DNA of 64,000 nucleotides, from NCBI GenBank assembly GCA_019038645.1, contig JAHOYT010000054.1:4365-68364 (forward strand), written 5' to 3'. The notes under the pieces are model-generated. The model did no database searches, was not told the origin of the DNA, and was given only the letters and a program-made list of their open reading frames with translations. Source of the DNA: Bacteroidales bacterium. GTDB lineage: Bacteria; Bacteroidota; Bacteroidia; Bacteroidales; UBA12077. Both the position numbers and the translations under genes were made by a program. Shown here in pieces: positions 12,618 through 38,500 of this stretch (positions are counted from its first letter, which is position 1; the number at the start of each line of letters is the position of its first letter).

Positions 12618-12641
12618 CGATATGTTTATTTTTGCATATCC
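12618..12641. promoter_or_regulatory. ModE-like operator overlapping the wtpA -7 box
   Basis: CGATATGT-N8-GCATATCC; TATTTTTG -7 box at 12627-12634 lies inside it; same motif at 38477-38500. Confidence 0.7.
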
Positions 12642-12663
12642 TTAATTAAACAATTGAACAAAA

Positions 12664-13617
12664 ATGAAACGCATTAAATTATTAACCATTTTTCTCACAG
12701 CTTTAATCCTTTTTAGCTGTAACAATAAAAATTCTGAAAACAATCAACTTATTATTTTCCATGCAGGAAGCCTTTCTGTTCCTTTCAAACAAATGAAAGC
12801 AGAATTTGAAAAAGAAAACCCCGGCGTTAAAATTTTACTGGAATCGGCAGGAAGTGTTGCAAGTGCCAGAAAAATTACGGATTTAAATAAAGATTGTGAT
12901 ATTATGGCATCCGCAGATTATACTATTATTGATGAAATGTTAATTCCGGATTACACCAGCTGGAACATAAAATTTGCCAGTAACGAAATGGCAATCGTAT
13001 ATCATGATGCATCAAAATACTCCGATGAAATAAATGCAGAAAACTGGCATGAAATATTATTACGCGATGATGTATTATTCGGACGCTCAGATCCAAACTC
13101 CGATCCATGCGGATACCGTGCTATATTAACTTCTCAGTTATCGGAACAGTTTTATAATCAGGATGGTTTAACGAACAAAATCATACAAAAAAATCAGGAA
13201 TATATTCGTCCCAAAGAGGTTGATTTATTGGCGCTGTTAGAATCGAATACAATTGATTACTTATTCTTATATCGTTCGGTAGCACAACAACACGAATTAA
13301 AATATGTTATTCTTCCTGATTCAGTTAACCTGAAAAATCCTGAATTAAGAGAATTCTATAAAAATGCGAAAGTAGATATTACAGGTAAAACTCCGGGAAC
13401 CACAATAACAAAAATCGGTCAGCCAATGGTTTATGGCATTACAATTTTAGATAATGCGCCAAATAAAGAACTGGCCTTAAAATTCACCGATTTTATTTTA
13501 TCAAAACAAGGAGGCGCAAAAATTATGGAAGAAAACGGCCAACCATCTATGATTCCTTCGTATTCCGAAACTTATATTTCAATTCCTGAGACACTTAAAC
13601 AATATGCCAAAAATTAG
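12664..13617 (+). CDS. wtpA: Tungstate/molybdate ABC transporter substrate-binding lipoprotein WtpA
   Basis: Lipobox LFSC; FHAGSL, AGSVASARK, SADY, SDPNSDPCGYR, RPKEVDL, YRSVAQQH motifs of WtpA. Confidence 0.92.
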   Translation: MKRIKLLTIFLTALILFSCNNKNSENNQLIIFHAGSLSVPFKQMKAEFEKENPGVKILLESAGSVASARKITDLNKDCDIMASADYTIIDEMLIPDYTSWNIKFASNEMAIVYHDASKYSDEINAENWHEILLRDDVLFGRSDPNSDPCGYRAILTSQLSEQFYNQDGLTNKIIQKNQEYIRPKEVDLLALLESNTIDYLFLYRSVAQQHELKYVILPDSVNLKNPELREFYKNAKVDITGKTPGTTITKIGQPMVYGITILDNAPNKELALKFTDFILSKQGGAKIMEENGQPSMIPSYSETYISIPETLKQYAKN

Positions 13618-13647
13618 CTGTTAGCTTTAGTAATTGGCTTTTAGCAA
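13614..13647. repeat. Degenerate heptamer tandem repeat
   Basis: TTAGCTG TTAGCT TTAGTAA TTGGCTT TTAGCAA. Confidence 0.55.
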
Positions 13648-13666
13648 AAAAAAAGAATCTCAAAAA

Positions 13667-14911
13667 ATGAAATACATATATTTATTTTTACTAATCAGTA
13701 TAATAACAACAAGCATAAAAGCGCAATTAAGAATTGATGCAGAATATCGCCCGCGATTTGAACTGAGAGATGGTTACAGTACTTTAAAAGCAGAAGATTC
13801 TGAGCCTGCATATTTTGTTACTCAACGTACCAGACTAAATTTAAATCACACATATAATAATGTTACATCAAAATTGTCGGTTCAGGATTATCGTGTTTGG
13901 GGAGACTCAAAATTAAAAGCTGATGATCCGGGAGTAAGTGTTTTTGAAGCTTATTTTAAATTGAATTTAAACGATTATTGGGCAATAACTGCTGGTCGTC
14001 AGGCAATTGATATTGATAACAAACGACTTTTTTCGGCAGCAAACTGGAATCAGGTTAGTACTTCGCACGATGGTGTAACTCTTGATTTCATGAATGAATT
14101 GTTCAATTTTAAAATGATTACAGCCTTTAATCAGGCAGAAGTTTCTAATTTTGGAACCGATTATTCTGCTCAGATCAGCAATTACAAATTTTTAAACGTA
14201 ATCTGGTTAGAGAAAAAAATCAAAAAACTGACTCTTGCCAATTTAACCATAACCGATGCTTATCAAAAAGTTGGTACAAGCAATACCGATTATTACAGAT
14301 TTACGACAGGTGCGATAATCAAATATAAGAAAACAGCAAATGATATTCAGATAAGAGGATTTTATCAGACGGGGAAGAATAAGACAGGACAGGATGTAAG
14401 TGCGTATTATACAAGTGCAAGTTATGCACGTAAATTTGGATCGGTTCTGAGTTTAACCGGAGGGTTCGAATATATGTCGGGTAACAATTTAACCGATATA
14501 ACCAATGAGAAAGATAATGCATTTGATATTTTATATGGAGCAAAACATTGGTTTAATGGAATGATGGATTATTTTAGCACTCCAAATACAACTCATAATG
14601 CGGGTTTAGTTGATGGATATATAAAAGTTGATTTCACAAAAATTGAGAATTGGAAATTATCTACACATTATCATTATTTAGCTTTTGCTAATAATTATAT
14701 TCACGAAGGCGAAAAGCAAGATAAATTTTTAGCAAACGAAATCGACTTGGTTGGAACCTGGAAGGTTAATGATATTATAAATTTACAGTTAGGATACGGA
14801 ATGTTATTTGGAGGAAAAACGCTGGAATATGTTAAAGGAGTTGAAGGTGATGGATTACAACACTACTTTTTTGCAATGATAACAGTAAAACCAACATTCT
14901 TTAAAAATTAA
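13667..14911 (+). CDS. Alginate-export-family outer-membrane beta-barrel porin
   Basis: ATG 13667 gives a signal peptide; EYRPRFELRDGY, QRTRL, QDYRVWG, GRQ, NWNQ..HD and H.F.GMMDYF motifs; stop overlaps the wtpB start (TAATG). Confidence 0.8.
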   Translation: MKYIYLFLLISIITTSIKAQLRIDAEYRPRFELRDGYSTLKAEDSEPAYFVTQRTRLNLNHTYNNVTSKLSVQDYRVWGDSKLKADDPGVSVFEAYFKLNLNDYWAITAGRQAIDIDNKRLFSAANWNQVSTSHDGVTLDFMNELFNFKMITAFNQAEVSNFGTDYSAQISNYKFLNVIWLEKKIKKLTLANLTITDAYQKVGTSNTDYYRFTTGAIIKYKKTANDIQIRGFYQTGKNKTGQDVSAYYTSASYARKFGSVLSLTGGFEYMSGNNLTDITNEKDNAFDILYGAKHWFNGMMDYFSTPNTTHNAGLVDGYIKVDFTKIENWKLSTHYHYLAFANNYIHEGEKQDKFLANEIDLVGTWKVNDIINLQLGYGMLFGGKTLEYVKGVEGDGLQHYFFAMITVKPTFFKN

Positions 14912-15699
14912 TGATAAATAACCGAAATACACCGATACTATTCGTACTATTTGGCGGACTAATTTTACTTTTTATTATTAGTCCGTTGCTTAGCATGTTT
15001 TTGGCAACAACTCCGCTGCAATTATTCGAAACATCTAAAGATCCTGAAGTAGTTAATAGTATCTGGCTAACGCTAAGAGTTTCTTTTTTAGCCACTTTGT
15101 TTTTTGCTATTGGTGCTATTCCGCTGGCCTATTTTTTGGCAAGAACAAAATTCAAATTTAAAAAACTTGTAAATGGTATTATTGATTTACCCATTGTAAT
15201 ACCACACTCAGCTGCCGGAATTGCTATTCTTGGATTTATTTCAAGAGATTCTGTTTTAGGAAAAGTAGCATCTTCGCTTGGGCTTAATTTTGTTGGTCAT
15301 CCTGTTGGAATAGCGTTAGCAATGGCATTTGTGAGTATCCCGTTTTTAATAAATGCTGCCCGCGATGGATTTGAGAGTGTTCCAATAAAACTTGAAAAAA
15401 CAGCATTAAACCTTGGGGCATCGCCCGTAAGAGTATTTTTTACTATATCCTTTCCCCTGGCATGGAAAAATATATTGTCGGGATTAATAATGATGTTTGC
15501 CCGTGGATTAAGCGAATTTGGAGCTGTTGTTATTGTTGCATATCACCCAATGATAACACCTGTACTTATTTTTGAGAGATTTGGTGCATTCGGGTTAAAA
15601 TATGCAAGGCCTGTCTCAGTTGTATTTATTATTGTATGTCTGGTATTCTTTATTTTTTTAAGAACCTTATCGAAAGAAAAACACACAAATAATGCTTAA
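14911..15699 (+). CDS. wtpB: Tungstate ABC transporter permease WtpB
   Basis: DLPIVIPHSAAG, EAA-like loop LEKTALNLGAS, FARGLSEFGA. Confidence 0.9.
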   Translation: MINNRNTPILFVLFGGLILLFIISPLLSMFLATTPLQLFETSKDPEVVNSIWLTLRVSFLATLFFAIGAIPLAYFLARTKFKFKKLVNGIIDLPIVIPHSAAGIAILGFISRDSVLGKVASSLGLNFVGHPVGIALAMAFVSIPFLINAARDGFESVPIKLEKTALNLGASPVRVFFTISFPLAWKNILSGLIMMFARGLSEFGAVVIVAYHPMITPVLIFERFGAFGLKYARPVSVVFIIVCLVFFIFLRTLSKEKHTNNA

Positions 15700-16732
15700 G
15701 CTAAAAGATATATCAATTAAGCTCGGGGATTTTCAACTGAGAAAAATAAATCTTGAGTTGAATAAAGGAGATTATTATGTTCTTTTAGGTAAATCGGGTG
15801 TAGGAAAAACTGTTTTGCTGGAAATTATTGCCGGACTTATTAAACCCGATTCAGGTAATGTTTTTATGAATAATACAGAAATAACTAATGAAAAAATACA
15901 AAACAGAAAAGTAGGAATTGTTTTTCAGGACTATTCAGTTTTCCCGCATTTAAATGTAAAACAAAATATCGCATACTCTTTAAAAGGCAAGAAGATTACA
16001 AATAGTAAAAAAGAAGTATTAATAAATCAATATGCCGGATTAACCAATATTACTCACTTGTTAGATCGAAATACTCAAAATTTATCGGGTGGGGAATTAC
16101 AGCGTGTAGCATTGGCCCGTATGTTGGTTTCAAAACCTGAATGCCTGCTTTTAGATGAACCATTAGCTTCCCTTGATATACAATTGAAAGGCGGTTTAAG
16201 AAATTTATTACGACAAATAAATCAAAGTGGAGTAACTATTTTACATGTAACGCACGATTATGAAGAAGCAATTGCTTTATCGGATAAAGTTGCTGTTATA
16301 CACGAAGGTGAAATAGTTCAGAGAGGATCAACAAAAGAAGTATTCCAAAAACCTGCCAATGAGTTTGTTGCCAATTTTACCGGAATAAAGAATTTTTTTC
16401 TTGCAGATTTTTCCCCAATTAATAATGCAAAAATTAATGGTACACTGGAAATAAACGTTTCAAATAAAGATCAGATAAAAAACGGGAAAATAATTATTCG
16501 TGGTGAGGAAATTATCTTATCCAATGAAAAAATGGAATCAAGTGCAACTAATAATTTCAAAGGAAAGATAAAACAAATTATCCCGTACTTAACCAATCAT
16601 GAAATAATTGTTGATATTGGAATTGATTTAACAGTTGTAATATCTGAAGAATCATTACAAAAATTTAAATTCAGTGAAAATTCTGAAGTTTGGGTTTCCT
16701 TTAAATCTACTGCAATAAAGATTATTCCGTAG
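15692..16732 (+). CDS. wtpC: Tungstate ABC transporter ATPase WtpC with C-terminal TOBE domain
   Basis: GKSGVGKT, LSGGE, LLLDEP, HVTHD, SSATNNFKG TOBE. Confidence 0.88.
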   Translation: MLKLKDISIKLGDFQLRKINLELNKGDYYVLLGKSGVGKTVLLEIIAGLIKPDSGNVFMNNTEITNEKIQNRKVGIVFQDYSVFPHLNVKQNIAYSLKGKKITNSKKEVLINQYAGLTNITHLLDRNTQNLSGGELQRVALARMLVSKPECLLLDEPLASLDIQLKGGLRNLLRQINQSGVTILHVTHDYEEAIALSDKVAVIHEGEIVQRGSTKEVFQKPANEFVANFTGIKNFFLADFSPINNAKINGTLEINVSNKDQIKNGKIIIRGEEIILSNEKMESSATNNFKGKIKQIIPYLTNHEIIVDIGIDLTVVISEESLQKFKFSENSEVWVSFKSTAIKIIP

Positions 16733-16763
16733 AACACATCCATATCATTATTCTTAATTGTAA

Positions 16764-18062: not shown

Positions 18063-18145
18063 ATCCCTTGTTTTTGTGGTACGAAAGTAATTTTTAAAAA
18101 AATATTAAACAATTGGAAGTCTTCTTTGTTATAAAGTAAAATTAA

Positions 18146-18196: not shown

Positions 18197-18556
18197 ATGG
18201 CTTTTAAATTACCGGAATTAACATATAAGTACAATGCATTAGAGCCTTACATCGATGCACAAACAATGGAAATACATCACACTAAGCATCATGCAGGGTA
18301 TACTAACAATTTGAATAATGCTATTAAAGGTACAGAATTAGATAACAAATCCATAGAGGATATAGTAAAGGATATTTCTAAATATCCTGTTGCAGTCAGG
18401 AATAATGGAGGCGGATTATATAATCACAAGTTATTCCGTGAAATAATGACGCCAAATGGTGGTGGTGAACCAACCGGAGATTTATCTCCGGTTTTTTTGT
18501 TATGGCAGGATTCATTTTCTGGTCATTTATCTTTAAATTTGTTTAAAATAAATTAA
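18197..18556 (+). pseudogene. sodA: Truncated Mn-type superoxide dismutase (N-terminal domain only)
   Basis: [23 protein letters not shown] matches SOD to PTGDL, then runs into a terminator; the DxWEH ligand domain is absent. Confidence 0.8.
18472..18498 (+). terminator. Terminator hairpin at the sodA truncation point
   Basis: AACCGGAGAT-TT-ATCTCCGGTT plus T run. Confidence 0.75.
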
Positions 18557-18574: not shown

Positions 18575-19150
18575 ATGGCTTTCGAATTACCTAACCTACC
18601 CTATGCATATGATGCTTTAGAACCGTTTATTTCAAAACAAACACTGGAATTTCACCACGACAAGCACCATGCGGCTTATGTAAATAATCTAAATAATTTA
18701 ATAAAAGGCACGGAGTTTGAAAATGCCAATATCGTTGATATTATTACCAAAGCTAAAGGTGGTATTTTTAACAATGCAGCTCAGGTTTGGAATCATACAT
18801 TTTATTTTGATCAGTTTGGGAAAAACAAAATTGAAAAATTGAGTGGTCAGTTATTGGTAGCAATTAATGCCAGCTTTGGATCATTTGACGAGTTCAAGGA
18901 GAAATTTTCTGTAGCAGCAAAAACTCTGTTTGGATCAGGTTGGGCATGGTTGGTTAAAAAACCAAATGGAAGCCTGGAAATTATTCAGACTTCAAATGCA
19001 ACAAACCCATTAACTGAAGGTTTGATCCCAATTTTAACCTGCGATGTTTGGGAGCACGCTTATTATCTTGATTATCAGAATAAACGTCCTGATTATGTAG
19101 GGAACTTCTGGAGCCTGATTGATTGGGAAATTGTTTCGGGTCGATACTAA
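18575..19150 (+). CDS. sodB: Superoxide dismutase [Fe]
   Basis: HHDKHH, FNNAAQVWNH (Fe-type Gln), FGSGWAW, DVWEHAYY. Confidence 0.95.
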   Translation: MAFELPNLPYAYDALEPFISKQTLEFHHDKHHAAYVNNLNNLIKGTEFENANIVDIITKAKGGIFNNAAQVWNHTFYFDQFGKNKIEKLSGQLLVAINASFGSFDEFKEKFSVAAKTLFGSGWAWLVKKPNGSLEIIQTSNATNPLTEGLIPILTCDVWEHAYYLDYQNKRPDYVGNFWSLIDWEIVSGRY

Positions 19151-20539: not shown

Positions 20540-23500
20540 TCATTGTATAATCAGTTTCCTCAAATAATATTTATCATCAATTCTGAATCTTATGTAATAA
20601 ATACCATTAGCGTATGGATTAACATCTATATGCTTCGTTGTATTCTGAACATTTGATAATTTGTTGTTATACAGAATTTGTCCGTTAATATTTATTATTT
20701 CTATTACAACATCAGTTGATTTTTCATTTTCAAGAATTATACTCAGACTTTCGGAAACAGGATTTGGATAATAAGTAATTTTATATCCTTCTCCCTTAAT
20801 TAAATTATCAATTCCGGTTATTTTTTCACAATATATCTCTCCCATGCCCTGACATCCTAACGCATCAGTTACCGTAACTGTATAAGTATCTGTTTCTGTT
20901 ACTGTAATTGTTGGAGTTGTGTCTCCTGTGGACCATAAATAAGAACTATAAGTATCGAATATAATTATTTCATAACTGTCTGAAAAGCGTACCGTATCAC
21001 TTCCCATATCAACAACAGGTTGGCTAATTTCAATAGGATTATCAGATAAAGTATCATTAACTGCATTTTCATCACCGCCTAATTTAACAAAAGGTTTAAA
21101 TTCATAATCTCCTGCAGCATCAAATGTAATATCATCGGCAAAAGTATAATCGATTGTAGTACTTGCATTCAGAGTCGAGCTTAAGTTGGTATTTTCAAGT
21201 ACAATAGGTCCGTTCCCAATACGATATCCAACATCTAAATAAGATCCGGACGTAATGTTAACTTCTCCTAAATTTTCAATAGTAATTTCAACCTGATATG
21301 TTTTTCCCGATTGCCAGCATTCCGATACAGGTGATTTTAAAACTGTTACTCCCAAATCAGGAGTTATATCAAATATAACCATAACTGAATCTGAAGCCAC
21401 ACAGCCTAAATCATTGGTTACAGTAACGGCATAATAATTATTCAGTGTTTGGGTATTGATATCTACAGTATAAGTCTGAAGGTCACTTTCATCAAACCAT
21501 TCATAAATGACATAACCACTGCCAGCATCAAGTACATACTCTGTATTAGCTGTATTTACAGTTTCTCCCAGATCGAGATCTGGTTTTGGGTGGTCAATTA
21601 TTATTGTAGTTGTATCAATTAGATCAACGTCAAGACTGGTCAGTTTGGCAAATACATTAAATTCGTGTGGCTTGTTTTCTGTTAAATCAGCATCATTTCC
21701 TGATAATGTGAATAAGCTTGTACTATCAGGATAAAGAATCTCAGTTAAATTAAACAATTCACTTACATAAGGATCAGAATTTAATAAATATCCTACTTCC
21801 AGTTGTTCTCCAATTTGCAATGTATCTGCTCCATTATTTATTACTCCAATAATAACAGTTTCAGTTGTGGTTAAATCACATTTTACAACAGGAGAATTAA
21901 TTGAGTCGGCAGTAACATTATAAGTGTAAATATTAAGGTAATCGGTTGTGGTACATCCGTTTACGTCTGCAACTGTTAAAGTGTATTCCTTTGAAGCCAG
22001 ATATGTTACATTTAATGTTTGGCCTACTGTCCCGTCACTCCAGTTATAAGCATTGAAACCGCCAGGTGCTACAATTGAAACAGTATCGGGTTGTGTGGTT
22101 AGTATATCGTCACCTATTTCAACATCAGGGAAGCCGAATGTTTTTATTGCATCAATTAATGTGTCATTTGTTGTATTCACATCCAGGTTATAAGCTGTGA
22201 ATAACTTAAACTTGTGTGTCTTTATTAATGAAACATCAACCTGGTCTGCAAAAGTATAATTAACAGTTTGAGAAGGCCCCAGATCTGCTTCTAAAGTAAA
22301 GTTTTCAACCACGGGAACTTCGCCTTCTAAAATATAGCCGACAGGAATAACAGTGTCCGTATATAAAATGTCCAGACTATAATTTTTAATAGTAATAGTT
22401 ACGTTCTCATTAGCTGAATTTTCACAAGCATTAGTGGGACTAACCATAGCATTTATTCCTACATTATAGGTAATAATATGAGTTGAATCAACACTGGTAA
22501 TACAATCATGCATGTCAGTAACTGTTACCTTATATTTTTTAGAAAAATTATCACTTACTGAAAGGCTGTTACTTCCTGAAGAACCATCACTCCAGTTATA
22601 TGTTTTAAAGCCGCTTTGTACAATTAATTCTACAGTATCTGCACTTGTTGTAAAAATAGTATCATAAGGAAGTGAAACAGTCGGATATCCATAAGTTTCC
22701 AGGGCTCCGTCGAAACTATCGTTTAATGAATTGGCATCTTGTTCTGAGTTAAGCTCTATTACAAATGAATAACTTCCGTCAATATTCGGATCTACAGTAT
22801 TTGTTAAGGTCAGTGTTCTGTCAATACCCGATCCCAAATCACTCGCGAGAGTAACTGTGTCATTTACCCATCCAGCGCCATTAAAATCAAATCTGAACGG
22901 AATTTTAGTACCTGTTAAATATGTATTGCCACTGTAATTATGAATTGATACCTGTATTGGTTCAGTGGTCGTATGTCCGCAGTCACTTACAGGATTTATT
23001 ACACTGTTAATTCCAAAATCATATGTTTGAACAAAAACGGAATCAGAATCGCTTCCGCATGCAAAATTATCTGTAACCGTTACATAAAACCAGTTACTTA
23101 AATTGTTTGGTGGTTTAATAGAATCATTTGTTTCTGCTGTGTTCCATATATAATTCAAATAGCCAGCTGTAGCAACTAAATCCAATGTATCTGCTTGTGA
23201 TGTGTACGCAGTATCATAATTTAGATTGACATCAACATAACCGTTTGTATTAATTATACTGGTTACAGTATCATCGGCATGATTCAGGTCTTTTAATACA
23301 TTAGTGAATACCTTGACCGTATAAGCTCCTGGTGTTTTTAGATCACACTTTTCGTTATATGTAAAATCGGCATTACCTCCTATACCGATTTCAGAAGAAA
23401 CGAATAAAGTATCCTCAACAACCGGATTATTATTAATCTGATAACCCAGTAAAACCGTATCAGTATCACTTATAACACTTATGCCATTATTTATAAAACG

Positions 23501-26723: not shown

Positions 26724-29700
26724 ATGAAAAAATTATTAATATTCATATCGTTATTATTTTTCACAATTAATTTGTTTGCACAAACAGATAGAGAATTTTG
26801 GTTTGCTGCTCCTGAAGTAACCTGGCGACATGATAATGGACGATTTTATCCGGAATGGGGAACTACATATGCCGGTGGAGAACCAATTTTACTTAGGGTG
26901 GTAACTAATACTTTACCAGCAAATGTTACTATAGAACAACCTGCAAACTCAGTAAATTTTCCTACAATTAACTTAAGTATTGCTGCAAATTCAACTCAAA
27001 CGGTTAATTTAACTGATCTGGGAATGCAAGCGGAGGTGGAAAATACATATGATAATGCTAATGGAATAATGGATAAGGGCATACACATATTTTCTGACAA
27101 TTTAATTACTGTATATTATGAGGTGAGGACCAGAAATAATTGTGATATTTTTGCTTTAAAGGGACAAAATGGATTAGGATCTGACTTTTATGTACCTTTT
27201 CAGGATATTGGTAGAAATCAGAGAGATAGTTGGGCTACAGACAAAGCTTATTCTGCAATAAATATTGTAGCAATAGAAGATAATACAATAATAACAGTTT
27301 TACCATCACAAGCAGTACTTAGAGATATGGGTGCAAACATGGTACATCCTGCCGGAGTTCCTTTTGATGTTGTTTTAAATAAAGGACAAACATATTCATT
27401 GCCACCTGCATGGGATGCAGCGTGGAACTGGTTTGGTCGGGAGAAAAATCAACATATTGGTGGAACATATTTACATGTACATGATGACAAAAAGATTGCT
27501 GTTACAATTAGTGATGACTCGGTTAGAGAAGATTTAGCAAGTGTTGATTGGGGCTGTTATGATCTTATTGGAGACCAGATGGTTCACCTCGGTGTTTTAG
27601 GAAAGGAATATATTGCAATGAGAGGTCAGTTAAATACTGATTTGGAAAATATATTTATGGTTGCAACAGAGAATAATACACGAATTTGGGTTGAAGGTAA
27701 TGATACATTAAACCCCCCTGATGCAATAATAGATGCAGGAGAACAGTTCATGTATACATTTGTTGTAGCTTCTCCAGACTTTTTACATATGATTTCAAAT
27801 AAGAAACTATCTGTTTTACATGTTTCCGGATTTGGTTGTGAGATGGGTGGTGCAGTACTTCCACCAACTGACAAATGTACTGGTTCCACACAAGTTGGTT
27901 TTACGAGATCTACCGATGAAGGATTTTATTTAAATATAATGGTTTGGAACGGAGCTGAAGATGGATTTTATATAGATGGGGTTTTACAGGATGGGTCAGC
28001 AGGTACTCTTTTTGACGATACTGATTTTCTACCTGTAACCGGAACTGCAGATTGGTTAGTATATAGATCTCTTAATCTTAATACAGCAACTATTCCTTTA
28101 AATGCTCAAACACTTATTACAAATAACAAGGATGTTTTTCATTTAGGTATAATAAATGGAGGTACAAATTCTGGTTGCCGTTTTGGTTATTTTTCAGATT
28201 TTAATGAATTAGCAGTTTCAGCTGAAGCTACAGGTAGTCAATCAAGTTCTATTAGAGCTTGTAGTTATGAACAAATACAATTATATGCAGCCGGAGGAAC
28301 TAATTTTAACTGGTGGCCGGCAGAGTATTTAAATGATCCGTCTATTGCGGAACCAATTGCTGATCCACCAGCAGGTTCAACTACATTATTTGAAGTTGAA
28401 GTTAGTGGTGCCTGCGGATTAACAGACACTGCGAATGTTACAGTAAAAAAATTCCCTAATCTTGATGCCCAGTTTTCTGTTGATAAAGGAAACGGATGTT
28501 CTCCTTTAGAAATTGAAATGAACGAAACCTCAACGCAAATTTATGAAAGATATTGGGATTTCAATTATTCAGGAATAGGAGGTATACTTGATAGAGATAC
28601 TGTTTTATTTACTGATAACACAAATTATGACACAGATACTACATTTACACATTTTTTTATTAATACTACTAACGAGGCAGATCCTGATTCAATAGAAAAC
28701 TATGAAATTCGACTACTAGTAAAGAATACCAACGATTGTGTAGATACGGCTTATGGTTCCATAATTGTTTACCCGGAAGTAACTGCTGATTTTACATTAA
28801 CAGATTTGAATGATACTATTGGTTGTAGCCCGTTGTTAGTAGGATACGTTGATAATTCAAATAATGAAGATTTTTATTATTGGAAATTTGGTGATGGAGT
28901 GTCTAGTACGGTTCAAAACCCTATTCACGAATTTATCAATATTCTGAATTCTGATACTGTGTATAACACAGAATTAATTGTAAGATCAATACACTTCTGT
29001 AGAGATACTTTAAATATGGATATTACTTTACATCCTTACCTTGAGGCAGGATTTACAATTGATGTATACGAGGGATGTTCGCCCCTTGATGTTACCGTTA
29101 CAACAAATAATGTATTTGAAGATTCAGTTGTACTTGTGTATGGTGATGGAGATACTCTTAAGGCTCCTACTTTAGGCTCGGTTGTTCATACATATAGTAA
29201 TACAGGTACGAGTGTTGATACCAATGCTATTGAGTTGCATGTGTTTAATGACGAAGGCTGTGAGAAAATCTGGTATGATACGGTTATTGTATTTCCAGAA
29301 TTTACTGCAGATTATAATATAGATGTTCCTTCCTATTCCGGATGTAATTCTCAATTGTTTAATTTTACAAATGCAACTACTACTAGTTTGCATGCTGCTT
29401 CAGAATTTCTTTGGTCCTTTGGTGATGGTTCGAACTCTAATGTAGAAAACCCACCTCCACATTTATATGATAATACTTCATCAGCCGATAAAGTATACAA
29501 TTTTACTTTACATGCAGAATCTCAATATGGTTGTTTTGATGATACTACAGATCAAATTATAATCTATAGGGCTTATGCTGATTTTACAGTTGATGCTGAT
29601 GAAGGATGTTCTCCTCTTGATGTTACAATTTCAAATATTTCTGAAGGTAATCAAATAACAACATGGGCTTGGGATTTTGATGATGCAACTAATAGTGCTT

Positions 29701-32700
29701 TGCAAGATCCTCCTGTAAAAACATATACGAATACTTCAGGAGCAACTCAGGTTCGCAATATGCAACTCACTGTTACCGGAACAGCTGGTTGTAGCACATC
29801 TAAAATTACACCTATAACTGTTTATTCATCTGTAGATTTAACATTTATTCCATTAAATCAAACCGGTTGTGATTCCTTTGAGATTGACTTCAATTCAACC
29901 ATTAATCCGATTATAGCAGGAACAACTTATCAATGGGATTTTGGTGATGGAACTTCATCAGGTATAGATGACCCAACACATATTTACAGGAATTTAACAA
30001 ACGCAAATGCAGTAGTATATCCTGTTAATATTGCAGTTCAAACACCTGACGGTTGTACTGATGCTGAAACAACGAATATAACTGTTAGACCTTACGTTAA
30101 TGCAAAATTCACAGTTGACAAGGTGGCAGACTGTTCACCTTTAACCCTGGACGCAGTTGCAACAGAATATATAGGTATTCCTGTTGGTAATTATGCGTGG
30201 ACATATGGTGATGGGTATAATCCGACAGTATCTGATCCTCCTGCACATACGTATCCTGCTAATCCTCCAGGGGCAAATGATATTTATACACTTAGATTAG
30301 ATGTATCTGATCCAAGTGGAATTTGCACTGATTTTATTACACAAACAATAACAGTTTACGATGAAGCACTGGCCGATTTTGATCCAAAAAATTCAACAGA
30401 TTGTAATCCGTATGTTTTAACTTTCGATAATGTATCACTAAATGCAGCAATAAATAAGTGGGATTTTGATGATGGAGGTACAACTTCATCTGACTTTGAA
30501 CCTACATATACTTTTACAAATGATGCTGTTGTTACAAAAACGTATGATGTTGAATTAGAGGTTACTTCGGATGAAGGATGTACTGATGTTACAACCTCAC
30601 CTGTGAATGTTTATCCTCTCGTAATAGCTGATTTTGACATTGATATTTCCGAAGGTTGTTCTCCGGTTATTGTAACTATTTCTAATAATTCGTCCGGTGG
30701 TAATTATAGATGGTTTTGGACTGATGATGATCTAACTGCTGCTGCGGACTTCACAACAAATACTTCACCAGATTCATTTACTCATACTTATACCAATTCA
30801 TCCGGGATTACAGATATTAATAACCTAACCGTAATTGCAGATAATGGAAATGGTTGTTTTGATACATTGCAAAGAGCAGTTACAGTACATACAACAATTG
30901 ACGCTCAGTTTACTGTCAATCCTGTTAGCGAGGAAGGATGTAATCCTTTAACAGTTGATTTTACAAATACAACATTTAACGGGGATACTTATAATTGGTC
31001 ATTTGGTGATGGATCATCAACAACAATAACTTCTCCAACAAATGAATTTATTAATACAACTACCAGCGATAAAACATTCAATGTGAGAATGGATGCTGAA
31101 TCTGTAAATGGTTGTACAGATTTTGCAGAAACTGTAATTACAGTTTATTCGAAGGTAATTTCTGGTTTTTCTATTGAAACGAGTGAAGGATGCCCTCCTT
31201 TTTATACATCAATTGATAATACTTCAGTAGGGAATGCAGCAAATACATACCAATGGTTAATTGACAATGTTCCGGTTGGTGGTTCACCTGTAGATTTATC
31301 AGATTTTGACCATACTTATGAAAATACTGTAACTTTCACACGCGATTATGAAGTTAAGTTAATTGCAACAAATCCACATGGATGTACATCTGAACATACA
31401 GATATCGTTACTGTATATGAATATATTGAAGCATCATATAGTATGGATATTGATAATGGTTGTAGTCCTCTTGACATTGAATTTACAGATTTATCTTCGG
31501 TGCCGGCCTCAACTAAGTATATATGGGGTTTTGGTGATGGAGCTTCTTCGGGTTTATCCGACCCCACACATACATTTTATAATTCAAGCCGAACAGCAGA
31601 TTTAACATATACAGTTGATCTGACAGTACAATCACCAAATTATTGTGCTGATGATACAAGCATGGAAGTAGATGTTTATCACCAGCCATTATCGAAGTTC
31701 TTTATTGATAATACTTCTTCTTGTCCACCTTTATTATCTACCCTGATAAAACAATCAGAAGGAGAAGATATGTTTGAATGGCGTTTTGATGACGGTAACC
31801 CAAATAATACAACAGATGCAAATTTAACGTATTCATGGCCAAACACAGACGTTGATGTTATTCAAACCTACAATTTAGAACTTTGGGTGGGAACTTTTAA
31901 TAATTGTAAAGATAGTGTCTCATTAGATTTGAATGTATTCCCTTTAGTAGATGCTGATTTTACTATTGATAATAATGAAGGTTGTAGTCCGTTAGAAGAT
32001 GTGAATTTTACGAATGAATCCACATCACCCGCAACACAGTTTTTCTGGAGTTTTGGAGATGGTTCAACTACCAACATGGAAAATCCGGCACATGATTTTG
32101 CGAATATAGGAATTACTGATAGAACATATGATGTGTTTTTTAGAGCATCATCGGAATATAATTGCTGGGATACAATAACAAAGCAAGTTACGGTTTATGT
32201 GCAACCGAATGCAGAGTTTTATGTCGATCCGGTATTATTAACATTCCCTGACAATATAGTAGGTGTTGATAATAAGACGAATAGTGGTCCGTTTGATTAT
32301 CTGTGGAAGTTTGGAGATATTGATAATACTGAATCCGATGCGGAAGAACCAGGTTCTTTTGAATATGAACATTGGGGAGAGAAAATAATTGAATTAACTG
32401 CAATTAGTCAAACTAATATTGATTGTAATGATTATTATGCTGACACGATAACTATTATACCTCCTGAAGTAAATGCAGACTTTACAAGCAATATTAATGA
32501 AGGCTGTTTAGCAGATGGTTTAGAAGTGCAGTTTACAGCTGCTGGTTCTGCTTACTCTGAAGATTATAGCTATTCATGGGAGTTTGGAGATGGAAAAACC
32601 GGTACGGGACAATATATTAATCATATTTATGAAGAAGCAGGTATTTATTATGTAAAAATGACTGCTTCAAGTACTGAGGGAATGGGAGAAGATTATGAAT

Positions 32701-33269
32701 ATAAAACCATTCAGGTATACTCAAACCCAACAGCTAACTTTGAGGTGTCTCCGGCTCTTGTCATGTTAAATATTGATCTTGAAGCAAGAGTAGAATTTTT
32801 TAATTTATCTGAGTGTAGCGACACTTCGGGCTGTTCATATGTTTGGGACTTTGGGGATGGAAGTACTGGCATATCAAGAGATGTAACACATCAATATACT
32901 GAGTTAGGTATATATGATATTGGTTTAACCGTAACATCTTTTAATAATTGCGTAGATTCATTATTCAAACCAGGAGCGGTTGAGGTAATCGGAGCAGGTC
33001 AAATTTCATTTCCAAATGCCTTTACTCCAAATGGTGATGGATTGAATGATGTTTTCAGGCCGGTATCCGAAGGAGTTATAAAATATGAATTGCTGGTATA
33101 TACCAGATGGGGTGAATTAATTTTTACCACAAAAGATTTAAGTGCAGGTTGGGATGGCAAGATACAAGGTGAATATGCAAAACCTGAAGTATATGTGTGG
33201 AAAGCAGAGGGTAAATTTACAAATGGCAGAGCGTTTGAACTGGCAGGTGATATAACATTAATAAAATAA
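26724..33269 (+). CDS. Large PKD-repeat protein with IgGFc-binding-like N-terminus and T9SS type-B (gliding-motility-associated) CTD
   Basis: Signal peptide, DREFWF N-terminus, many GCSPL...W(D/S)FGDG PKD repeats, C-terminal FPNAFTPNGDGLND...RWG...WDG...G.ITLIK. Confidence 0.92.
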   Translation: MKKLLIFISLLFFTINLFAQTDREFWFAAPEVTWRHDNGRFYPEWGTTYAGGEPILLRVVTNTLPANVTIEQPANSVNFPTINLSIAANSTQTVNLTDLGMQAEVENTYDNANGIMDKGIHIFSDNLITVYYEVRTRNNCDIFALKGQNGLGSDFYVPFQDIGRNQRDSWATDKAYSAINIVAIEDNTIITVLPSQAVLRDMGANMVHPAGVPFDVVLNKGQTYSLPPAWDAAWNWFGREKNQHIGGTYLHVHDDKKIAVTISDDSVREDLASVDWGCYDLIGDQMVHLGVLGKEYIAMRGQLNTDLENIFMVATENNTRIWVEGNDTLNPPDAIIDAGEQFMYTFVVASPDFLHMISNKKLSVLHVSGFGCEMGGAVLPPTDKCTGSTQVGFTRSTDEGFYLNIMVWNGAEDGFYIDGVLQDGSAGTLFDDTDFLPVTGTADWLVYRSLNLNTATIPLNAQTLITNNKDVFHLGIINGGTNSGCRFGYFSDFNELAVSAEATGSQSSSIRACSYEQIQLYAAGGTNFNWWPAEYLNDPSIAEPIADPPAGSTTLFEVEVSGACGLTDTANVTVKKFPNLDAQFSVDKGNGCSPLEIEMNETSTQIYERYWDFNYSGIGGILDRDTVLFTDNTNYDTDTTFTHFFINTTNEADPDSIENYEIRLLVKNTNDCVDTAYGSIIVYPEVTADFTLTDLNDTIGCSPLLVGYVDNSNNEDFYYWKFGDGVSSTVQNPIHEFINILNSDTVYNTELIVRSIHFCRDTLNMDITLHPYLEAGFTIDVYEGCSPLDVTVTTNNVFEDSVVLVYGDGDTLKAPTLGSVVHTYSNTGTSVDTNAIELHVFNDEGCEKIWYDTVIVFPEFTADYNIDVPSYSGCNSQLFNFTNATTTSLHAASEFLWSFGDGSNSNVENPPPHLYDNTSSADKVYNFTLHAESQYGCFDDTTDQIIIYRAYADFTVDADEGCSPLDVTISNISEGNQITTWAWDFDDATNSALQDPPVKTYTNTSGATQVRNMQLTVTGTAGCSTSKITPITVYSSVDLTFIPLNQTGCDSFEIDFNSTINPIIAGTTYQWDFGDGTSSGIDDPTHIYRNLTNANAVVYPVNIAVQTPDGCTDAETTNITVRPYVNAKFTVDKVADCSPLTLDAVATEYIGIPVGNYAWTYGDGYNPTVSDPPAHTYPANPPGANDIYTLRLDVSDPSGICTDFITQTITVYDEALADFDPKNSTDCNPYVLTFDNVSLNAAINKWDFDDGGTTSSDFEPTYTFTNDAVVTKTYDVELEVTSDEGCTDVTTSPVNVYPLVIADFDIDISEGCSPVIVTISNNSSGGNYRWFWTDDDLTAAADFTTNTSPDSFTHTYTNSSGITDINNLTVIADNGNGCFDTLQRAVTVHTTIDAQFTVNPVSEEGCNPLTVDFTNTTFNGDTYNWSFGDGSSTTITSPTNEFINTTTSDKTFNVRMDAESVNGCTDFAETVITVYSKVISGFSIETSEGCPPFYTSIDNTSVGNAANTYQWLIDNVPVGGSPVDLSDFDHTYENTVTFTRDYEVKLIATNPHGCTSEHTDIVTVYEYIEASYSMDIDNGCSPLDIEFTDLSSVPASTKYIWGFGDGASSGLSDPTHTFYNSSRTADLTYTVDLTVQSPNYCADDTSMEVDVYHQPLSKFFIDNTSSCPPLLSTLIKQSEGEDMFEWRFDDGNPNNTTDANLTYSWPNTDVDVIQTYNLELWVGTFNNCKDSVSLDLNVFPLVDADFTIDNNEGCSPLEDVNFTNESTSPATQFFWSFGDGSTTNMENPAHDFANIGITDRTYDVFFRASSEYNCWDTITKQVTVYVQPNAEFYVDPVLLTFPDNIVGVDNKTNSGPFDYLWKFGDIDNTESDAEEPGSFEYEHWGEKIIELTAISQTNIDCNDYYADTITIIPPEVNADFTSNINEGCLADGLEVQFTAAGSAYSEDYSYSWEFGDGKTGTGQYINHIYEEAGIYYVKMTASSTEGMGEDYEYKTIQVYSNPTANFEVSPALVMLNIDLEARVEFFNLSECSDTSGCSYVWDFGDGSTGISRDVTHQYTELGIYDIGLTVTSFNNCVDSLFKPGAVEVIGAGQISFPNAFTPNGDGLNDVFRPVSEGVIKYELLVYTRWGELIFTTKDLSAGWDGKIQGEYAKPEVYVWKAEGKFTNGRAFELAGDITLIK

Positions 33270-33445: not shown

Positions 33446-34432
33446 GTGAAACGATTATATATACTATTCATTTTAATAGGTTTAATAATTTTTAAAACTG
33501 GTTTATCGCAGGATTCTCAGTTTTCACAATTTTATGCAAGCCCGCTTTATTTAGCCCCTTCGTTTGCAGGGTCAACTGATGGTGACCGTATTTCAATAAA
33601 TTATCGTAATCAATGGCCCTCTTTAACTAAATCGTTTCAAACTTATTCGCTTGGTTATGACCATTATTTTCCACATTTGAATAGTGGAGTCGGGCTTTTA
33701 ATGTACAGAGAACAAGCCGGGGCCAGTAGCCTGTCTACAACAAATATTGGTTTAGTTTATTCGTATAAATTCAGTTTTAGAAGTGGCTGGAGAGTAAGCC
33801 CAGGATTGAGTTTTTTTTATACACAACGAAATGTTGATTTTGGAAGCTTACTTTTTGAAGATGAAATCCGAAGTGATATAACCACAGGTACCGGCGAGCA
33901 GCAGATTCTTGAGAAGAAAGCAGATATTGACGCATCATTTTCGGTGTTAACTTATAATAAAAATTATTGGGTTGGATTTACCTGGGATAGAATATTAAAG
34001 CCAAATCGTTCTTTAACGGGTGATGTGATTGAGGATCCTTTCAAGTTTTCTATATACGGAGGAACGAAATTTACAATTTTTGACAGGTATAACTGGGCAA
34101 GCGGACAAAGTTTATCACCTTCTTTTCTTTTTAAAATGCAGGATACTTATTCTCAGCTTGATATTGGATTATACTGGTATCAGATTCCTCTTGTTATTGG
34201 TTTATGGTATAGAGGGATACCGGTTTTTAAAGAGCTTGCCAGTAATGATGCTTTAACTCTTTTATTAGGTTTTAAAATAGATCAGGTTAGTGTTGGATAT
34301 AGCTATGATGTAACTATCTCAAAGCTTGCAGGATTTACTGGTGGCACTCATGAAATTTCTTTGAACTACATGTTTAACCAGGGTATTACTAAAAGAGAAA
34401 AAAGAAAAGGTATTCCTTGTCCTACTTTCTGA
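33446..34432 (+). CDS. PorP/SprF-family T9SS membrane protein
   Basis: QDSQFSQFY..P.YL.P..AG, NYRNQW, GYSYD, GTHEISL, CPTF end; follows a type-B CTD gene. Confidence 0.93.
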   Translation: MKRLYILFILIGLIIFKTGLSQDSQFSQFYASPLYLAPSFAGSTDGDRISINYRNQWPSLTKSFQTYSLGYDHYFPHLNSGVGLLMYREQAGASSLSTTNIGLVYSYKFSFRSGWRVSPGLSFFYTQRNVDFGSLLFEDEIRSDITTGTGEQQILEKKADIDASFSVLTYNKNYWVGFTWDRILKPNRSLTGDVIEDPFKFSIYGGTKFTIFDRYNWASGQSLSPSFLFKMQDTYSQLDIGLYWYQIPLVIGLWYRGIPVFKELASNDALTLLLGFKIDQVSVGYSYDVTISKLAGFTGGTHEISLNYMFNQGITKREKRKGIPCPTF

Positions 34433-34521
34433 TAAAAAATCCCAAAATTCTTTTTGGAGTGTATTATATTCAATTATATTTGCTTTGTTAAAATAACGAA
34501 TAAAAATTAAATTAATTAATT

Positions 34522-35127: not shown

Positions 35128-35139
35128 AAGTACTATAAA

Positions 35140-36405: not shown

Positions 36406-36713
36406 TCTTCTTCAACAATAACAAAAATATCTTCATTATCTTTTTTCATAAGGTATTGTTCGCGTGCAAATTTCTCAAGATTTTTATTATTGGTTTTTAA
36501 TTGCTGTAAACGTTTAGAATCTTTATCAATTCGCTCAATATAGTACTTCTTATCTTTTTCTAATTGACGAAGATGTCTTAACTCTCTTGCTCTGTCCAGC
36601 AGGTTGTTCCTGTCGAAAAAGAAAAGCCATATAATGAAAATGAGTATTGTAAGAATAAATTTATTCTTAGCAAAAGGAAGTATTTTCTTCCATATTTTAA
36701 GTGCAGTACTCAT
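36402..36713 (-). CDS. Septum formation initiator (FtsB/DivIC family)
   Basis: One TM segment, coiled coil, LEKFAREQYLMKKDNED. Confidence 0.9.
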   Translation of the reverse strand: MSTALKIWKKILPFAKNKFILTILIFIIWLFFFDRNNLLDRARELRHLRQLEKDKKYYIERIDKDSKRLQQLKTNNKNLEKFAREQYLMKKDNEDIFVIVEED

Positions 36714-36824
36714 GCTACAATATTAAGAGAAAATAGATCTTACACAAAAGATTTTAATGGGAAAGTATTAACAATAATTAGTAAAAAGTTTAGATTTAAT
36801 AGTTAAAAGTTTTAAAATGTGAAT

Positions 36825-36859
36825 AACTCCGAACTTTAAACTCGAAACTCAGAACTATT
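36825..36859. repeat. Heptamer tandem repeat AACTNNN x5
   Basis: AACTCCG AACTTTA AACTCGA AACTCAG AACTATT. Confidence 0.65.
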
Positions 36860-36861
36860 GT

Positions 36862-37065
36862 TTATCCTCCGCTTACCAGATGAAGCACTATTACATTATC
36901 TCCCTCATTGATTTCAAAAATATCGTAAGCATCTTTTTTAATCAACTTGCTATTAACTTTTATAACCAACATTTTAAAAGTGTAGTTCTTAATTTGAAGA
37001 ATTTCAGAGATAGTTATTTTTTCTCTATCAAAAGATTCCTGCCGGTTATTTAGTATGATTTCCAT
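36862..37065 (-). CDS. thiS: ThiS/MoaD-family sulfur carrier protein
   Basis: 67-aa ubiquitin-like protein ending in GG. Confidence 0.9.
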   Translation of the reverse strand: MEIILNNRQESFDREKITISEILQIKNYTFKMLVIKVNSKLIKKDAYDIFEINEGDNVIVLHLVSGG

Positions 37066-37649
37066 TATTTCTTACTTAACAAAATTTCTAAAACAGTATT
37101 CGCCTGCATATTTGCCACTATCCCAACTCTTGGTGCCAATGGTGGATTATTATCAGCAATTTCTGATTTTTCATCGCCGCAAATATATAAATTTTCGTTT
37201 TGTCTGAATTTTATAGCGTTATTTTTTCCCCAACCAGCCATGCCAGAGCCAATAATAACTGGTATTTCAGGTAATTCTGATAAACATGTTTCAATCAACA
37301 TCTTTTTCATTTCTGCTAAATCGAATGCTTCTACAATAATGTCACAATCTTTATAAATCTCAACAATGTTATTCTCATTAAGTTTAATATTATTGTCAAT
37401 AACATTAATTTCAGGATTTATTCTTTTAATATTTTCTTTTAATGCATCCACTTTTCTAAGACCGATCTGATCTTTAAAGAAATACTGGCGATTAAGATTC
37501 GATTCATACACAATATCAAAATCAGAAATAATGATTTTACCAATTCCAACTCTTGCCAGAGCCACAGCACAATTCGAACCTAATCCTCCTGCTCCTGCAA
37601 TACCAATGGTGTAATTTTTAAGTTTTGTTTTTATTTCTTCGAAAGTCAT
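37065..37649 (-). CDS. thiF: Sulfur-carrier adenylyltransferase ThiF (short form lacking Zn-binding CxxC)
   Basis: GAGGLGS, DFD.V..SNLNRQ, EAFD, GSGMAG, APRVG. Confidence 0.9.
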   Translation of the reverse strand: MTFEEIKTKLKNYTIGIAGAGGLGSNCAVALARVGIGKIIISDFDIVYESNLNRQYFFKDQIGLRKVDALKENIKRINPEINVIDNNIKLNENNIVEIYKDCDIIVEAFDLAEMKKMLIETCLSELPEIPVIIGSGMAGWGKNNAIKFRQNENLYICGDEKSEIADNNPPLAPRVGIVANMQANTVLEILLSKK

Positions 37650-37652
37650 AAT

Positions 37653-38351
37653 TTATGGTTTTAAAAAGACCTTACTCATAAATGATAAAAACTGTTTTGT
37701 GCCTCCTCCTTTCTTAATAATTTTCAATGTATTTTCATCATTGGGTTCAAAGACGGAACCAAAAAGTAATTTAATATTACGATACTGAAACATTTCGCCA
37801 TTAAGTATTGTTGACGGACCCAAAGTGTAAATATCGCAATTATCTCTGGTTGCATTAACCAAATCTAAGAATGTTTTATTAAAAACTGAAGTTGAGGAAA
37901 GAATCAAGGCATCAGCCTTTTCAATTTCGATTAACTGTTCTGACATATTAGTTAACTTATTATCTTCTTCAGCTTTATCAAATATTTTTAAATCTATTTT
38001 TTCATTTTCGAATTTTTCAACCAACGATCGAAAAAACCCAATCATTACAATTTTATTATATTTTTTAAAATCGATTTTGTTAAAAATATCTATGGTTGTA
38101 TCATATTGATTATCATAATTATAAGTGGCATTAAAATACGCATTTAAAACAATCCTGTGCTGAATATTTTTTAAATCAGGAATCTTTAAATCCCGGATAT
38201 CAACTTTTATATAATTATCGAGTGTAGCACAAACACCAATATTTCCATTCTTTAGAATAACTGCTACATATTTTGCTCCACAAACAATATTCTGGATGTT
38301 ATTAATGTCGGTTCCGTATTTTTCGAAAAAGTATTCTAAGGGTTCTTGCAT
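37653..38351 (-). CDS. DUF364/Rossmann-like domain protein
   Basis: GVCATL, A..NA, VMIGFF, SSTSVFNKT, LGPST pattern typical of DUF364. Confidence 0.72.
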   Translation of the reverse strand: MQEPLEYFFEKYGTDINNIQNIVCGAKYVAVILKNGNIGVCATLDNYIKVDIRDLKIPDLKNIQHRIVLNAYFNATYNYDNQYDTTIDIFNKIDFKKYNKIVMIGFFRSLVEKFENEKIDLKIFDKAEEDNKLTNMSEQLIEIEKADALILSSTSVFNKTFLDLVNATRDNCDIYTLGPSTILNGEMFQYRNIKLLFGSVFEPNDENTLKIIKKGGGTKQFLSFMSKVFLKP

Positions 38352-38476
38352 ATTTTTAAATCTTGAATGCTAAAATATTTAACAAATTTACAATTAATTC
38401 TTTCAAATAATTAATATAATTTGGAATGCTAATATGTTCATATACAAACCAGTAATTGTATTTCTAAATTCATTCC

Positions 38477-38500
38477 CGATATGCACAATATAACATATTG
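38477..38500. promoter_or_regulatory. ModE-like operator between aor and the DUF364-thiF-thiS operon
   Basis: CGATATGC-N8-ACATATTG, same architecture as 12618-12641. Confidence 0.7.

Follow-up and report, generated by a model that had tools for sequence, protein, structure and literature searches.

What does it mean that the promoter of a tungstate transporter and that of a predicted tungsten enzyme carry the same spaced palindrome, and which protein would read it? This question is raised by a 64,000-nucleotide (nt) stretch (hereafter the window, positions 4365-68364 of contig C11) of a Bacteroidales metagenome-assembled genome designated G000 (3.39 Mb, 32% GC, 102 contigs), in which one palindrome lies upstream of wtpA, the first gene of a tungstate transporter, and the other upstream of aor, which encodes a member of the aldehyde:ferredoxin oxidoreductase (AOR) family. 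Tungsten enzymes are common in anaerobes and, to our knowledge, almost nothing is known about tungsten regulation in Bacteroidota. The results reported here make it highly probable, by sequence comparison, that the palindromes are operators of a ModE-like regulator lacking Mop domains and form one small regulon. That tungsten is the signal, and that the signs of regulation are as proposed below, appears about evenly balanced.

The sequence-only reading had described one spaced palindrome in two copies, and both copies were recovered. Operator 1 (12618-12641, CGATATGT-TTATTTTT-GCATATCC) lies in the wtpA promoter with a gap of 22 nt to the wtpA ATG (12664), and operator 2 (38477-38500, CGATATGC-ACAATATA-ACATATTG) lies between the minus-strand DUF364 gene (start 38351) and aor (ATG 38590); they score 27.9 and 25.1 bits, respectively, in a position weight matrix (PWM) built from sites of relatives only. 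When the pattern CGATATGY-N8-RCATAT was searched with at most one mismatch, four matches were found in the window (the two sites on both strands) versus 0.11 expected, and none of 100 dinucleotide shuffles of the window attained four. The bare core ATATG-N10-CATAT is not enriched, with 17 copies genome-wide versus 4-18 copies for other spacer lengths; 13 of the 17 are intragenic, and the four outside genes all fit CKATATGY-N8-RCATATCG. The fuller consensus is therefore required to define the motif.

Judged by sequence, both palindromes belong to a single motif family of five sites, located at tungsten/pterin or pruA promoters. The first PWM, built on four extragenic sites, revealed a fifth, untrained site (C36:20872-20895, 23.9 bits). 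The second PWM, built from 106 sites of relatives only, gave five matches in G000, all outside genes and scoring 25.1-28.8 bits, with the next-best match being intragenic and scoring 18.3 bits; a total of 29 matches of at least 8 bits were found in the 3.39 Mb. The consensus of the 106 sites, CGATATGY-N8-RCATATCG, is a 24-bp inverted repeat of the form CG-N-TAT...ATA-N-CG. The five operators precede wtpA, aor, an operon containing a ferredoxin gene and an AOR paralogue (ferredoxin-aor2), pruA, and a gene for a 125-aa ModE N-domain protein that heads a moeA-moaA-moaC operon. Three of them are outside the window: the ferredoxin-aor2 operator (C40:20358-20381) ends 43 nt before the ATG (20425) of the ferredoxin gene, whose product carries a twin-arginine motif as read from its sequence and which is followed by the AOR paralogue; the operator of the ModE N-domain gene (C36:20345-20368) lies 19 nt upstream of this minus-strand open reading frame (ORF); and the pruA operator (C36:20872-20895) lies between ppnP and the gene for a 550-aa aldehyde dehydrogenase. 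The weaker intergenic matches on contigs C27, C15, C46, and C6 were taken as noise, their neighbours being genes for an integrase, a dehydroquinase, a carboxyltransferase, a WD40-caspase protein, and a beta-lactamase-like protein. Among 2613 upstream windows of G000, 41 contain at least 12 of the 16 specified positions and six contain at least 14, all six being true targets; beyond these targets, none of the 2613 attains 14, which places the motif well clear of the genome background. All points of the sequence-only reading that were accessible to sequence analysis were upheld. Of the gene groups it named for a scan, wtp, aor, and the moeA-moaA-moaC operon have sites; the formate-dehydrogenase-like cluster of the window has none.

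The ModE-family helix-turn-helix (HTH) protein that had been expected outside the window is present on contig C36 (19948-20325, minus strand) and has its own operator. This gene, the sole ModE-like gene in G000, encodes 125 aa comprising the ModE N-domain only, and its operon has the order modE_N-HDIG-moeA-moaA-moaC. The best NCBIfam match of the product is TIGR00637 (ModE_repress, E 7.7e-22, 77.2 bits); it also matches PF00126 (40.1 bits, cut-off 26.6), the Escherichia coli ModE structures 1O7L and 1B9M across their residues 21-92 (E 2.3e-10), and 2IJL, a 135-aa 'molybdenum-binding transcriptional repressor' (E 1.6e-8). The motifs SYRKAW and RGGxxGG are invariant across 21 homologues. The N-terminal winged HTH of canonical ModE was found in this protein and the C-terminal tandem Mop/TOBE was not; by its domain content it is not a canonical ModE, and it falls into the single-domain ModE-like type, in which the DNA-binding domain stands alone. 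Short Mop-less homologues of 115-130 aa were found across the order, the listed homologues being about 110-150 aa long and longer fused forms not having been searched for, and close homologues are named 'molybdate transport system regulatory protein' in public annotation, by homology. Within the genus, the regulator was detected in 32 of 36 genomes, with 68-79% identity and open frames of 127-161 aa.

Modelling of the regulator as a homodimer gave an ipSAE interface score of 0.56 compared to 0.00 for the best control, with at least 97% of contacts agreeing between runs and a predicted local distance difference test score of at least 80; in calibration, the ipSAE mark was attained for 20 of 30 proteins whose solved structures are pairs and for one of 23 solved as single chains. 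The modelled interface is composed of an N-terminal strand (residues 11-23) and a C-terminal helix (residues 96-125). This result may reflect likeness to solved ModE dimers. A role as sensing partner was also considered for the HDIG protein, whose gene follows that of the regulator, and was dropped because only nine of 30 loci have it there. In most of 22 relatives, the regulator gene shows translational coupling to a gene for a 246-aa protein (for example, L020:1879-2619) that matches TiaS_TCKD weakly, at 21.5 bits and under the cut-off; next after it comes a gene for a 190-aa membrane protein without a Pfam family (L020:2561-3139). Neither of these two genes was found in G000.

Conservation of the operators was examined across about 30 congeneric species, 36 genomes of the genus having been searched, a site being defined as at least 12 of 16 specified positions in windows restricted to the upstream region of the gene. 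The proposal that the motif is conserved in orthologous promoters was upheld across these species at aor, pruA, wtpA, and the regulator gene. The aor operator is present in all 29 usable loci, with half-sites matching at 15 of 16 positions in every case (the 30th locus stops at a contig edge). The pruA operator is present in 28 of 29 loci, 14 of which are perfect (16/16), and the sole miss has just 95 nt of upstream sequence; pruA is the best-conserved target and was absent from the sequence-only reading. The wtpA operator was found in 27 of 30 loci at -67 to -32 from the start codon, and that of the regulator gene in 24 of 30 at -50 to -29. Alignment of the 29 aor upstream regions revealed that the half-sites are invariant whereas the 8-nt spacer and the 5' flank vary, which is the signature of a protein-binding site and not of general conservation. 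In addition, symmetric changes occur in both half-sites of wtpA operators (GGACATG in G016; GTTATG in G022, G030, and G034). In one locus (L049, in G004), the wtpA orthologue contains an in-frame TGA, and its upstream 200 nt hold no operator, the best match being 9/16; this gene may be in decay.

Beyond the genus, the pattern CGWTATGY-N8-RCATAW was searched for in a sample of 149 genomes that covers other families of the order with nearly one genome each. It was found in 35 of 60 regulator-bearing genomes (82 matches) versus 17 of 89 genomes without the regulator (25 matches), giving a Fisher p value of 1.4e-6, which is inflated by the kinship of the sampled genomes; a reversed control pattern gave 23 matches with and 49 without the regulator. 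In at least eight other families (represented by G051, G087, G130, G142, G151, G158, G163, and G164), a box lies no more than about 60 nt upstream of the regulator gene, as seen when coordinates were compared by eye. In terms of sequence co-occurrence, the motif tracks the regulator gene across the order.

The positions of the operators relative to the promoters fall into two geometries. Bacteroidota promoters have the consensus TTTG at -33 and TAnnTTTG at -7. At wtpA, the predicted -7 box TATTTTTG (12627-12634, plus strand) is formed by the spacer of the operator together with the base that opens the right half-site, and a candidate -33 element TTTG (12605-12608, plus strand) can be inferred from the sequence 18 nt upstream of it. 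The same arrangement is seen at pruA and the regulator gene, the box at the three promoters reading TATTTTTG or TATATTTG; an exact TAnnTTTG at that offset occurs in 18 of 27 wtpA sites, 26 of 28 pruA sites, and 10 of 24 regulator sites. The repressor geometry suggested for wtpA was thereby confirmed: the -7 box is inside the operator, and a bound dimer would therefore cover it. Thus, judged from predicted promoter boxes, an operator overlaps the promoter of an oxyanion-uptake operon.

At aor, for which an operator about 40 nt upstream of the -7 box had been reported and interpreted as activator geometry, the measured distance is 41 nt from the end of operator 2 to the -7 box TAATTTTG (38542-38549, plus strand), and in 26 of 29 loci a box of the form TAAYTTTG (TAnnTTTG) has a constant offset of 65 relative to the operator start. 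This spacing would put the operator centre about 67 nt ahead of the predicted transcription start, as is typical of upstream activators. Between operator 2 and the promoter is a conserved block, ATTTAAGTCATTTTATACTTT (38501-38522, plus strand), which ends in a weak -33-like TTTn in the 29-locus alignment. On the other side, a candidate -7 box of the DUF364 gene, TAAATTTG (38383-38390, minus strand), lies 87 nt from operator 2 and is conserved, and a block ACAAATTTAC is conserved in loci carrying DUF364; co-regulation of the divergent DUF364-thiF-thiS operon from operator 2 is possible but less clear.

Several further elements were observed near these promoters. In 28 genus loci, another strongly conserved block, AAACATGAYAAAAATCTTGTTTT, is found 10-35 nt ahead of the pruA operator; it may be an extended -33 region or the site of a second regulator. 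Among relatives whose ferredoxin-aor2 genes have no ModE-type box (e.g., L109 and L114-L117), a different palindrome, TTATCCTGGTWACAGGATA, occurs about 140 nt before the ferredoxin gene, which hints at another regulator for this AOR paralogue. Similar GC-richer intergenic hairpins were found at 12465-12535 of the window (between the response regulator gene and wtpA) and at C36:20905-21000 (between the pruA operator and the pruA start), and in some relatives the aor 5' leader has acquired hairpins of this kind. Such insertions account for the distance of 130-160 nt, instead of about 45 nt, that separates some operators from the start codon. These hairpins look like a family of repetitive extragenic palindromes or miniature inverted-repeat transposable elements.

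The wtpA product (12664-13617, plus strand) is a WtpA equivalog by both NF003196 (391.7 bits, cut-off 355) and TIGR03730 (337.5 bits, cut-off 242.75). It is followed on the same strand by an Alginate_exp-like outer-membrane channel gene (13634-14911; PF13372, 45.6 bits), a wtpB-like permease gene (14911-15699; PF00528 match; best NCBIfam model NF040839, 273.7 bits, below the cut-off of 340), and a wtpC-like ATPase gene (15692-16732; best NCBIfam model NF040840, 344.8 bits, below the cut-off of 440) whose product carries a C-terminal TOBE domain (residues 283-343; PF03459, 26.4 bits). Among the 30 wtpA loci of the genus, tblastn detected the channel gene between wtpA and wtpB in roughly half, and its product is a candidate outer-membrane route for tungstate. 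A histidine kinase and OmpR-type response regulator pair lies upstream of wtpA (10447-12408, same strand); as no more than about 4-5 of 30 loci have this pair next to wtpA, it was rejected as the regulator and is probably unrelated to tungsten control.

The aor gene (38590-40743, plus strand) encodes 717 aa with AFOR_N (161.8 bits) and AFOR_C (319 bits) domains, both scoring far above their cut-offs. Its nearest solved relative, 1AOR, is distant (E 3.4e-50), and no NCBIfam equivalog was attained; on this sequence evidence, the enzyme belongs to an uncharacterised branch of the aldehyde:ferredoxin oxidoreductase family. Divergent from aor, the minus-strand operon comprises the DUF364/DUF4213 gene (37653-38351) as its first gene, a thiF/moeB-like adenylyltransferase gene (37065-37649; NF006395, 263.9 bits, cut-off 159), and a ThiS/MoaD-like sulfur-carrier ORF (36862-37065) of 67 aa whose translation ends in GG. 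The 550-aa pruA product is an NAD-dependent L-glutamate gamma-semialdehyde (GSA; also 1-pyrroline-5-carboxylate, P5C) dehydrogenase (TIGR01236, 768 bits, cut-off 613.6).

We also checked the molybdenum side of the genome. The modABC genes (TIGR01256, TIGR02141, and TIGR02142, all above cut-off) are located at C44:1094-7458, directly upstream of xanthine-dehydrogenase (xdh) genes and beside dnaA, and two G000 proteins have molybdopterin-oxidoreductase domains, one of which is encoded in the window. The latter belongs to an NADH-linked formate-dehydrogenase-like cluster (59371-64000; NuoE-like, NuoF-like, and molybdopterin oxidoreductase genes) that runs past the window end. The PWM scan and examination of the modA leader revealed no ModE-type box at modABC-xdh or at the molybdopterin-oxidoreductase genes. 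An Rfam scan of the window found nothing at or above the gathering thresholds, and the modA leader gave only sub-threshold chance matches, providing no indication of a molybdenum cofactor riboswitch. As far as sequence can tell, the regulon is restricted to the tungsten side, i.e., wtp, AOR-family genes, and the shared pterin synthesis.

These observations suggest a simple mechanism. A dimer of the 125-aa ModE N-domain protein would bind the 24-bp box when tungsten is sufficient, and tungsten sufficiency is proposed as the signal mainly because the box occurs at wtp and AOR-family genes and not at modABC-xdh. The bound dimer would block the -7 box at the wtpA-porin-wtpBC operon, at pruA, and at its own modE_N-HDIG-moeA-moaA-moaC operon, whereas at aor it would most likely activate by recruiting or stabilising polymerase, and it may also act on DUF364-thiF-thiS. 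Under tungsten sufficiency, uptake, the regulator operon, and the tungsten-free dehydrogenase would be switched off and the tungsten enzyme switched on. Repression of pruA could then be regarded as cofactor sparing, in which a tungsten-free aldehyde dehydrogenase is turned off once a tungsten aldehyde oxidoreductase can work. Sensing could depend on a partner such as the TOBE domain of WtpC or on the tungsten cofactor, or it could be absent altogether.

E. coli ModE acts as both a repressor and an activator. The E. coli ModE operator, ATCGNTATATA-N6-TATATANCGAT, spans 24 bp from CG to CG and has a TAT core (PMC545781). The 24-bp inverted repeat, CG ends, and TAT core are common to that operator and to the box in G000, the N-domains of the two regulators are homologous, and each has one operator on the promoter of an oxyanion ABC transporter. 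However, the regulator described here has no Mop domains (125 versus 262 aa), its half-site has a G at position 7 (ATATG, not ATATA), and its targets are wtpABC, AOR-family genes, and pruA, with modABC lacking a site, unlike in the case of E. coli ModE. The operator is closest to the archaeal ModE box: the box of Methanosarcina acetivorans ModE, RTTATGT-N8-RCATAAY, has been proven by electrophoretic mobility shift assay (PMC12327845), and several relatives of G000 carry it exactly, e.g., CGTTATGT-TTATTTTT-ACATAACC. M. acetivorans ModE is encoded beside a WtpA-type transporter, represses alternative nitrogenases, and shows no response to molybdenum in vitro (PMC12327845). Both it and the regulator in G000 are thus tied to a WtpA-type transporter and to a repressor-type site on a metal-independent alternative enzyme, but the archaeal protein keeps one Mop domain and its targets are the alternative nitrogenases.

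Other regulators resemble the one in G000 in single features. In Campylobacter jejuni, mod and tup are repressed by the ModE-like protein Cj1507c, which lacks a metal domain and for which partner proteins or sensing of the cofactor have been suggested (PMC3417520). Compared by description only, it is similar in being a ModE-family protein without a metal-binding domain and with a link to a tungstate transporter, and different in being epsilonproteobacterial and in regulating mod and tup, with no AOR or pruA targets appearing in the passages covered. Single-domain ModE genes also occur in Desulfovibrio, where their mechanism was described as 'not clear' (PMC545781). In Desulfovibrio alaskensis, TaoR ties tungstate to control of an aldehyde oxidoreductase gene and of transport genes (PMC11980592, PMC12327845). 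TaoR is of another family (HTH_17 plus PBP_like), and neither a PF12727 (PBP_like, TaoR-type) match nor a free-standing Mop domain was found in G000. TunR has yet another architecture, Mop plus XerC-like. With regard to pruA, cofactor-sparing switches are known in which ModE/MopA represses anfA and B12 riboswitches repress B12-independent enzymes (PMC545781, PMC12327845). PruA resembles such targets in being an enzyme with no need for the cofactor in question and with a repressor-type site for a predicted sufficiency regulator, and AOR would, hypothetically, be the enzyme that replaces it. In a literature search, no paper was found on a regulon of ModE type, or on one for tungsten, in either Bacteroidales or Bacteroidetes, although an earlier computational prediction may exist; we also know of no previous description of a tungsten AOR paired with a P5C/GSA dehydrogenase. 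The novelty lies in the genes that make up the regulon (aor and pruA), in its confinement to the tungsten side, and in the large number of natural Mop-less regulators to which defined operators can be assigned.

Several observations weigh against a tungsten-responsive ModE-type regulon and need to be considered together. The TIGR00637 score of the regulator (77.2 bits) is below the curated cut-off of 98.5 bits, and no TOBE/Mop match was detected in the protein, the only two TOBE domains of the genome being those of WtpC and ModC. The sites used for the second PWM were selected in relatives by a G000-derived consensus, and the PWM scan is not fully independent in this respect. Among the targets, the ferredoxin-aor2 operator is kept in only two of 24 orthologous loci, the pruA site of G000 is degenerate (14/16), its -7 box is imperfect, and 156 nt separate the site from the start of the ORF, and the genome PWM scan found no site at three other AOR paralogues or at the formate-dehydrogenase-like cluster of the window. 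Moreover, no ModE-like gene was detected in four of the 36 congeneric genomes (98, 94, 83, and 63% complete); three of these four (G017, G036, and G011) retain aor operators, and G017 and G036 also retain wtpA operators. An unassembled locus is the likelier explanation for these four, because most of the 30 loci in the genus have pruA, ppnP, and the regulator gene side by side and in all four genomes the neighbouring pruA is missing too or cut by a contig end. The same four assemblies support the view that some other transcription factor binds the palindrome and the modE-like gene is just another target, together with six regulator-less genomes of the order sample that hold at least two pattern matches. 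Yet the motif tracks the regulator across families and the box equals proven ModE boxes (PMC12327845, PMC545781), G000 has a single ModE-like gene and no TaoR-type PBP_like protein, and the two-component pair, besides being found next to wtpA in so few loci, would be an unusual reader of this element, as OmpR-type regulators prefer direct repeats. We consider such a factor very improbable. An origin of the similarity in chance or in the base composition of AT-rich promoter DNA, for which one could point to the low GC content of the genome and to a bare core that is no commoner than other spacings, is already refuted by the shuffle, PWM, footprint, and profile results: the shuffle expectation is 0.11, non-target upstream windows never attain 14/16, and every one of the 29 aor promoters keeps its site while the spacer varies.

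The more substantial uncertainty concerns what the regulator responds to and how it acts at aor. DNA binding by a regulator without an oxyanion-binding domain could be constitutive, since E. coli ModE without its second (C-terminal) Mop domain binds DNA independently of molybdenum (PMC12327845). More generally, the operators and the regulator may be real and the signal something other than tungstate, namely molybdate, the finished pterin cofactor, a partner protein, or constitutive binding with autoregulation. WtpA-type proteins, which bind both oxyanions, would fit such a scheme, as would the missing Mop/TOBE domain; the M. acetivorans box is bound in vitro regardless of molybdenum (PMC12327845), and Cj1507c, for which partners or cofactor sensing were suggested, is another family member without a metal domain (PMC3417520). 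Nevertheless, a molybdate sensor should control modABC, whereas the regulon spans wtpABC and AOR-family genes and leaves out modABC-xdh, and opposed geometries at an uptake gene and a metal-enzyme gene typify a metal-sufficiency switch; we therefore regard a non-tungstate signal as the less probable option, though one to be taken seriously. At aor, the site might not be activating, serving only the divergent DUF364-thiF-thiS operon or repressing from a distance. DUF364-thiF is indeed divergent from aor in 24 of 30 loci, the aor start position is only predicted, and the block from the operator to -33 is conserved without evident reason. This account is nonetheless difficult to reconcile with the spacing of 41 nt to the aor -7 box, fixed in 26 of 29 loci, with the retention of the operator in six of 30 loci that have no DUF364 match, and with the distance of about 87 nt to the DUF364 -7 box, and repressing a tungsten enzyme together with tungstate uptake is physiologically implausible; we judge it improbable. 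A bolder version of the tungsten-sufficiency mechanism, to which we give slightly more weight than to a non-activating aor site but still consider unlikely, is a tungsten-sparing isoenzyme switch: the dimer would repress PruA and activate the 717-aa AOR, which would oxidise the same or a related amino-acid semialdehyde with electrons passing to ferredoxin, and the TOBE domain of WtpC would sense in trans, so that the state of the transporter rather than free tungstate is read. The control of MalT by MalK is a model for such sensing by a transporter ATPase.

If the assignment of a tungsten-sufficiency regulon to the Mop-less ModE-like protein is correct, it provides a testable map, consisting of one 125-aa regulator, a sharply defined 24-bp box, five operators, and two geometries, and applicable to dozens of species of uncultured Bacteroidales. 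Moreover, it broadens the question raised in C. jejuni and Methanosarcina of how a ModE without a working metal domain would sense metal, by offering many natural Mop-less proteins with defined predicted operators. Finally, the conserved pruA operator predicts that tungsten supply is tied to proline/arginine catabolism.

Some other genes of the window deserve a brief description. An ORF of 119 aa (18197-18556) containing only the N-terminal domain of an Fe/Mn superoxide dismutase lies directly before a full-length 191-aa superoxide dismutase gene (18575-19150) and looks like a partial tandem duplicate; rubrerythrin and nitroreductase genes come after this pair. Two divergent giant ORFs (20540-26581, minus strand, 2013 aa; 26724-33269, plus strand, 2181 aa) lie beside a PorP/SprF type IX secretion gene (33446-34432, plus strand) and probably encode large secreted or surface proteins.

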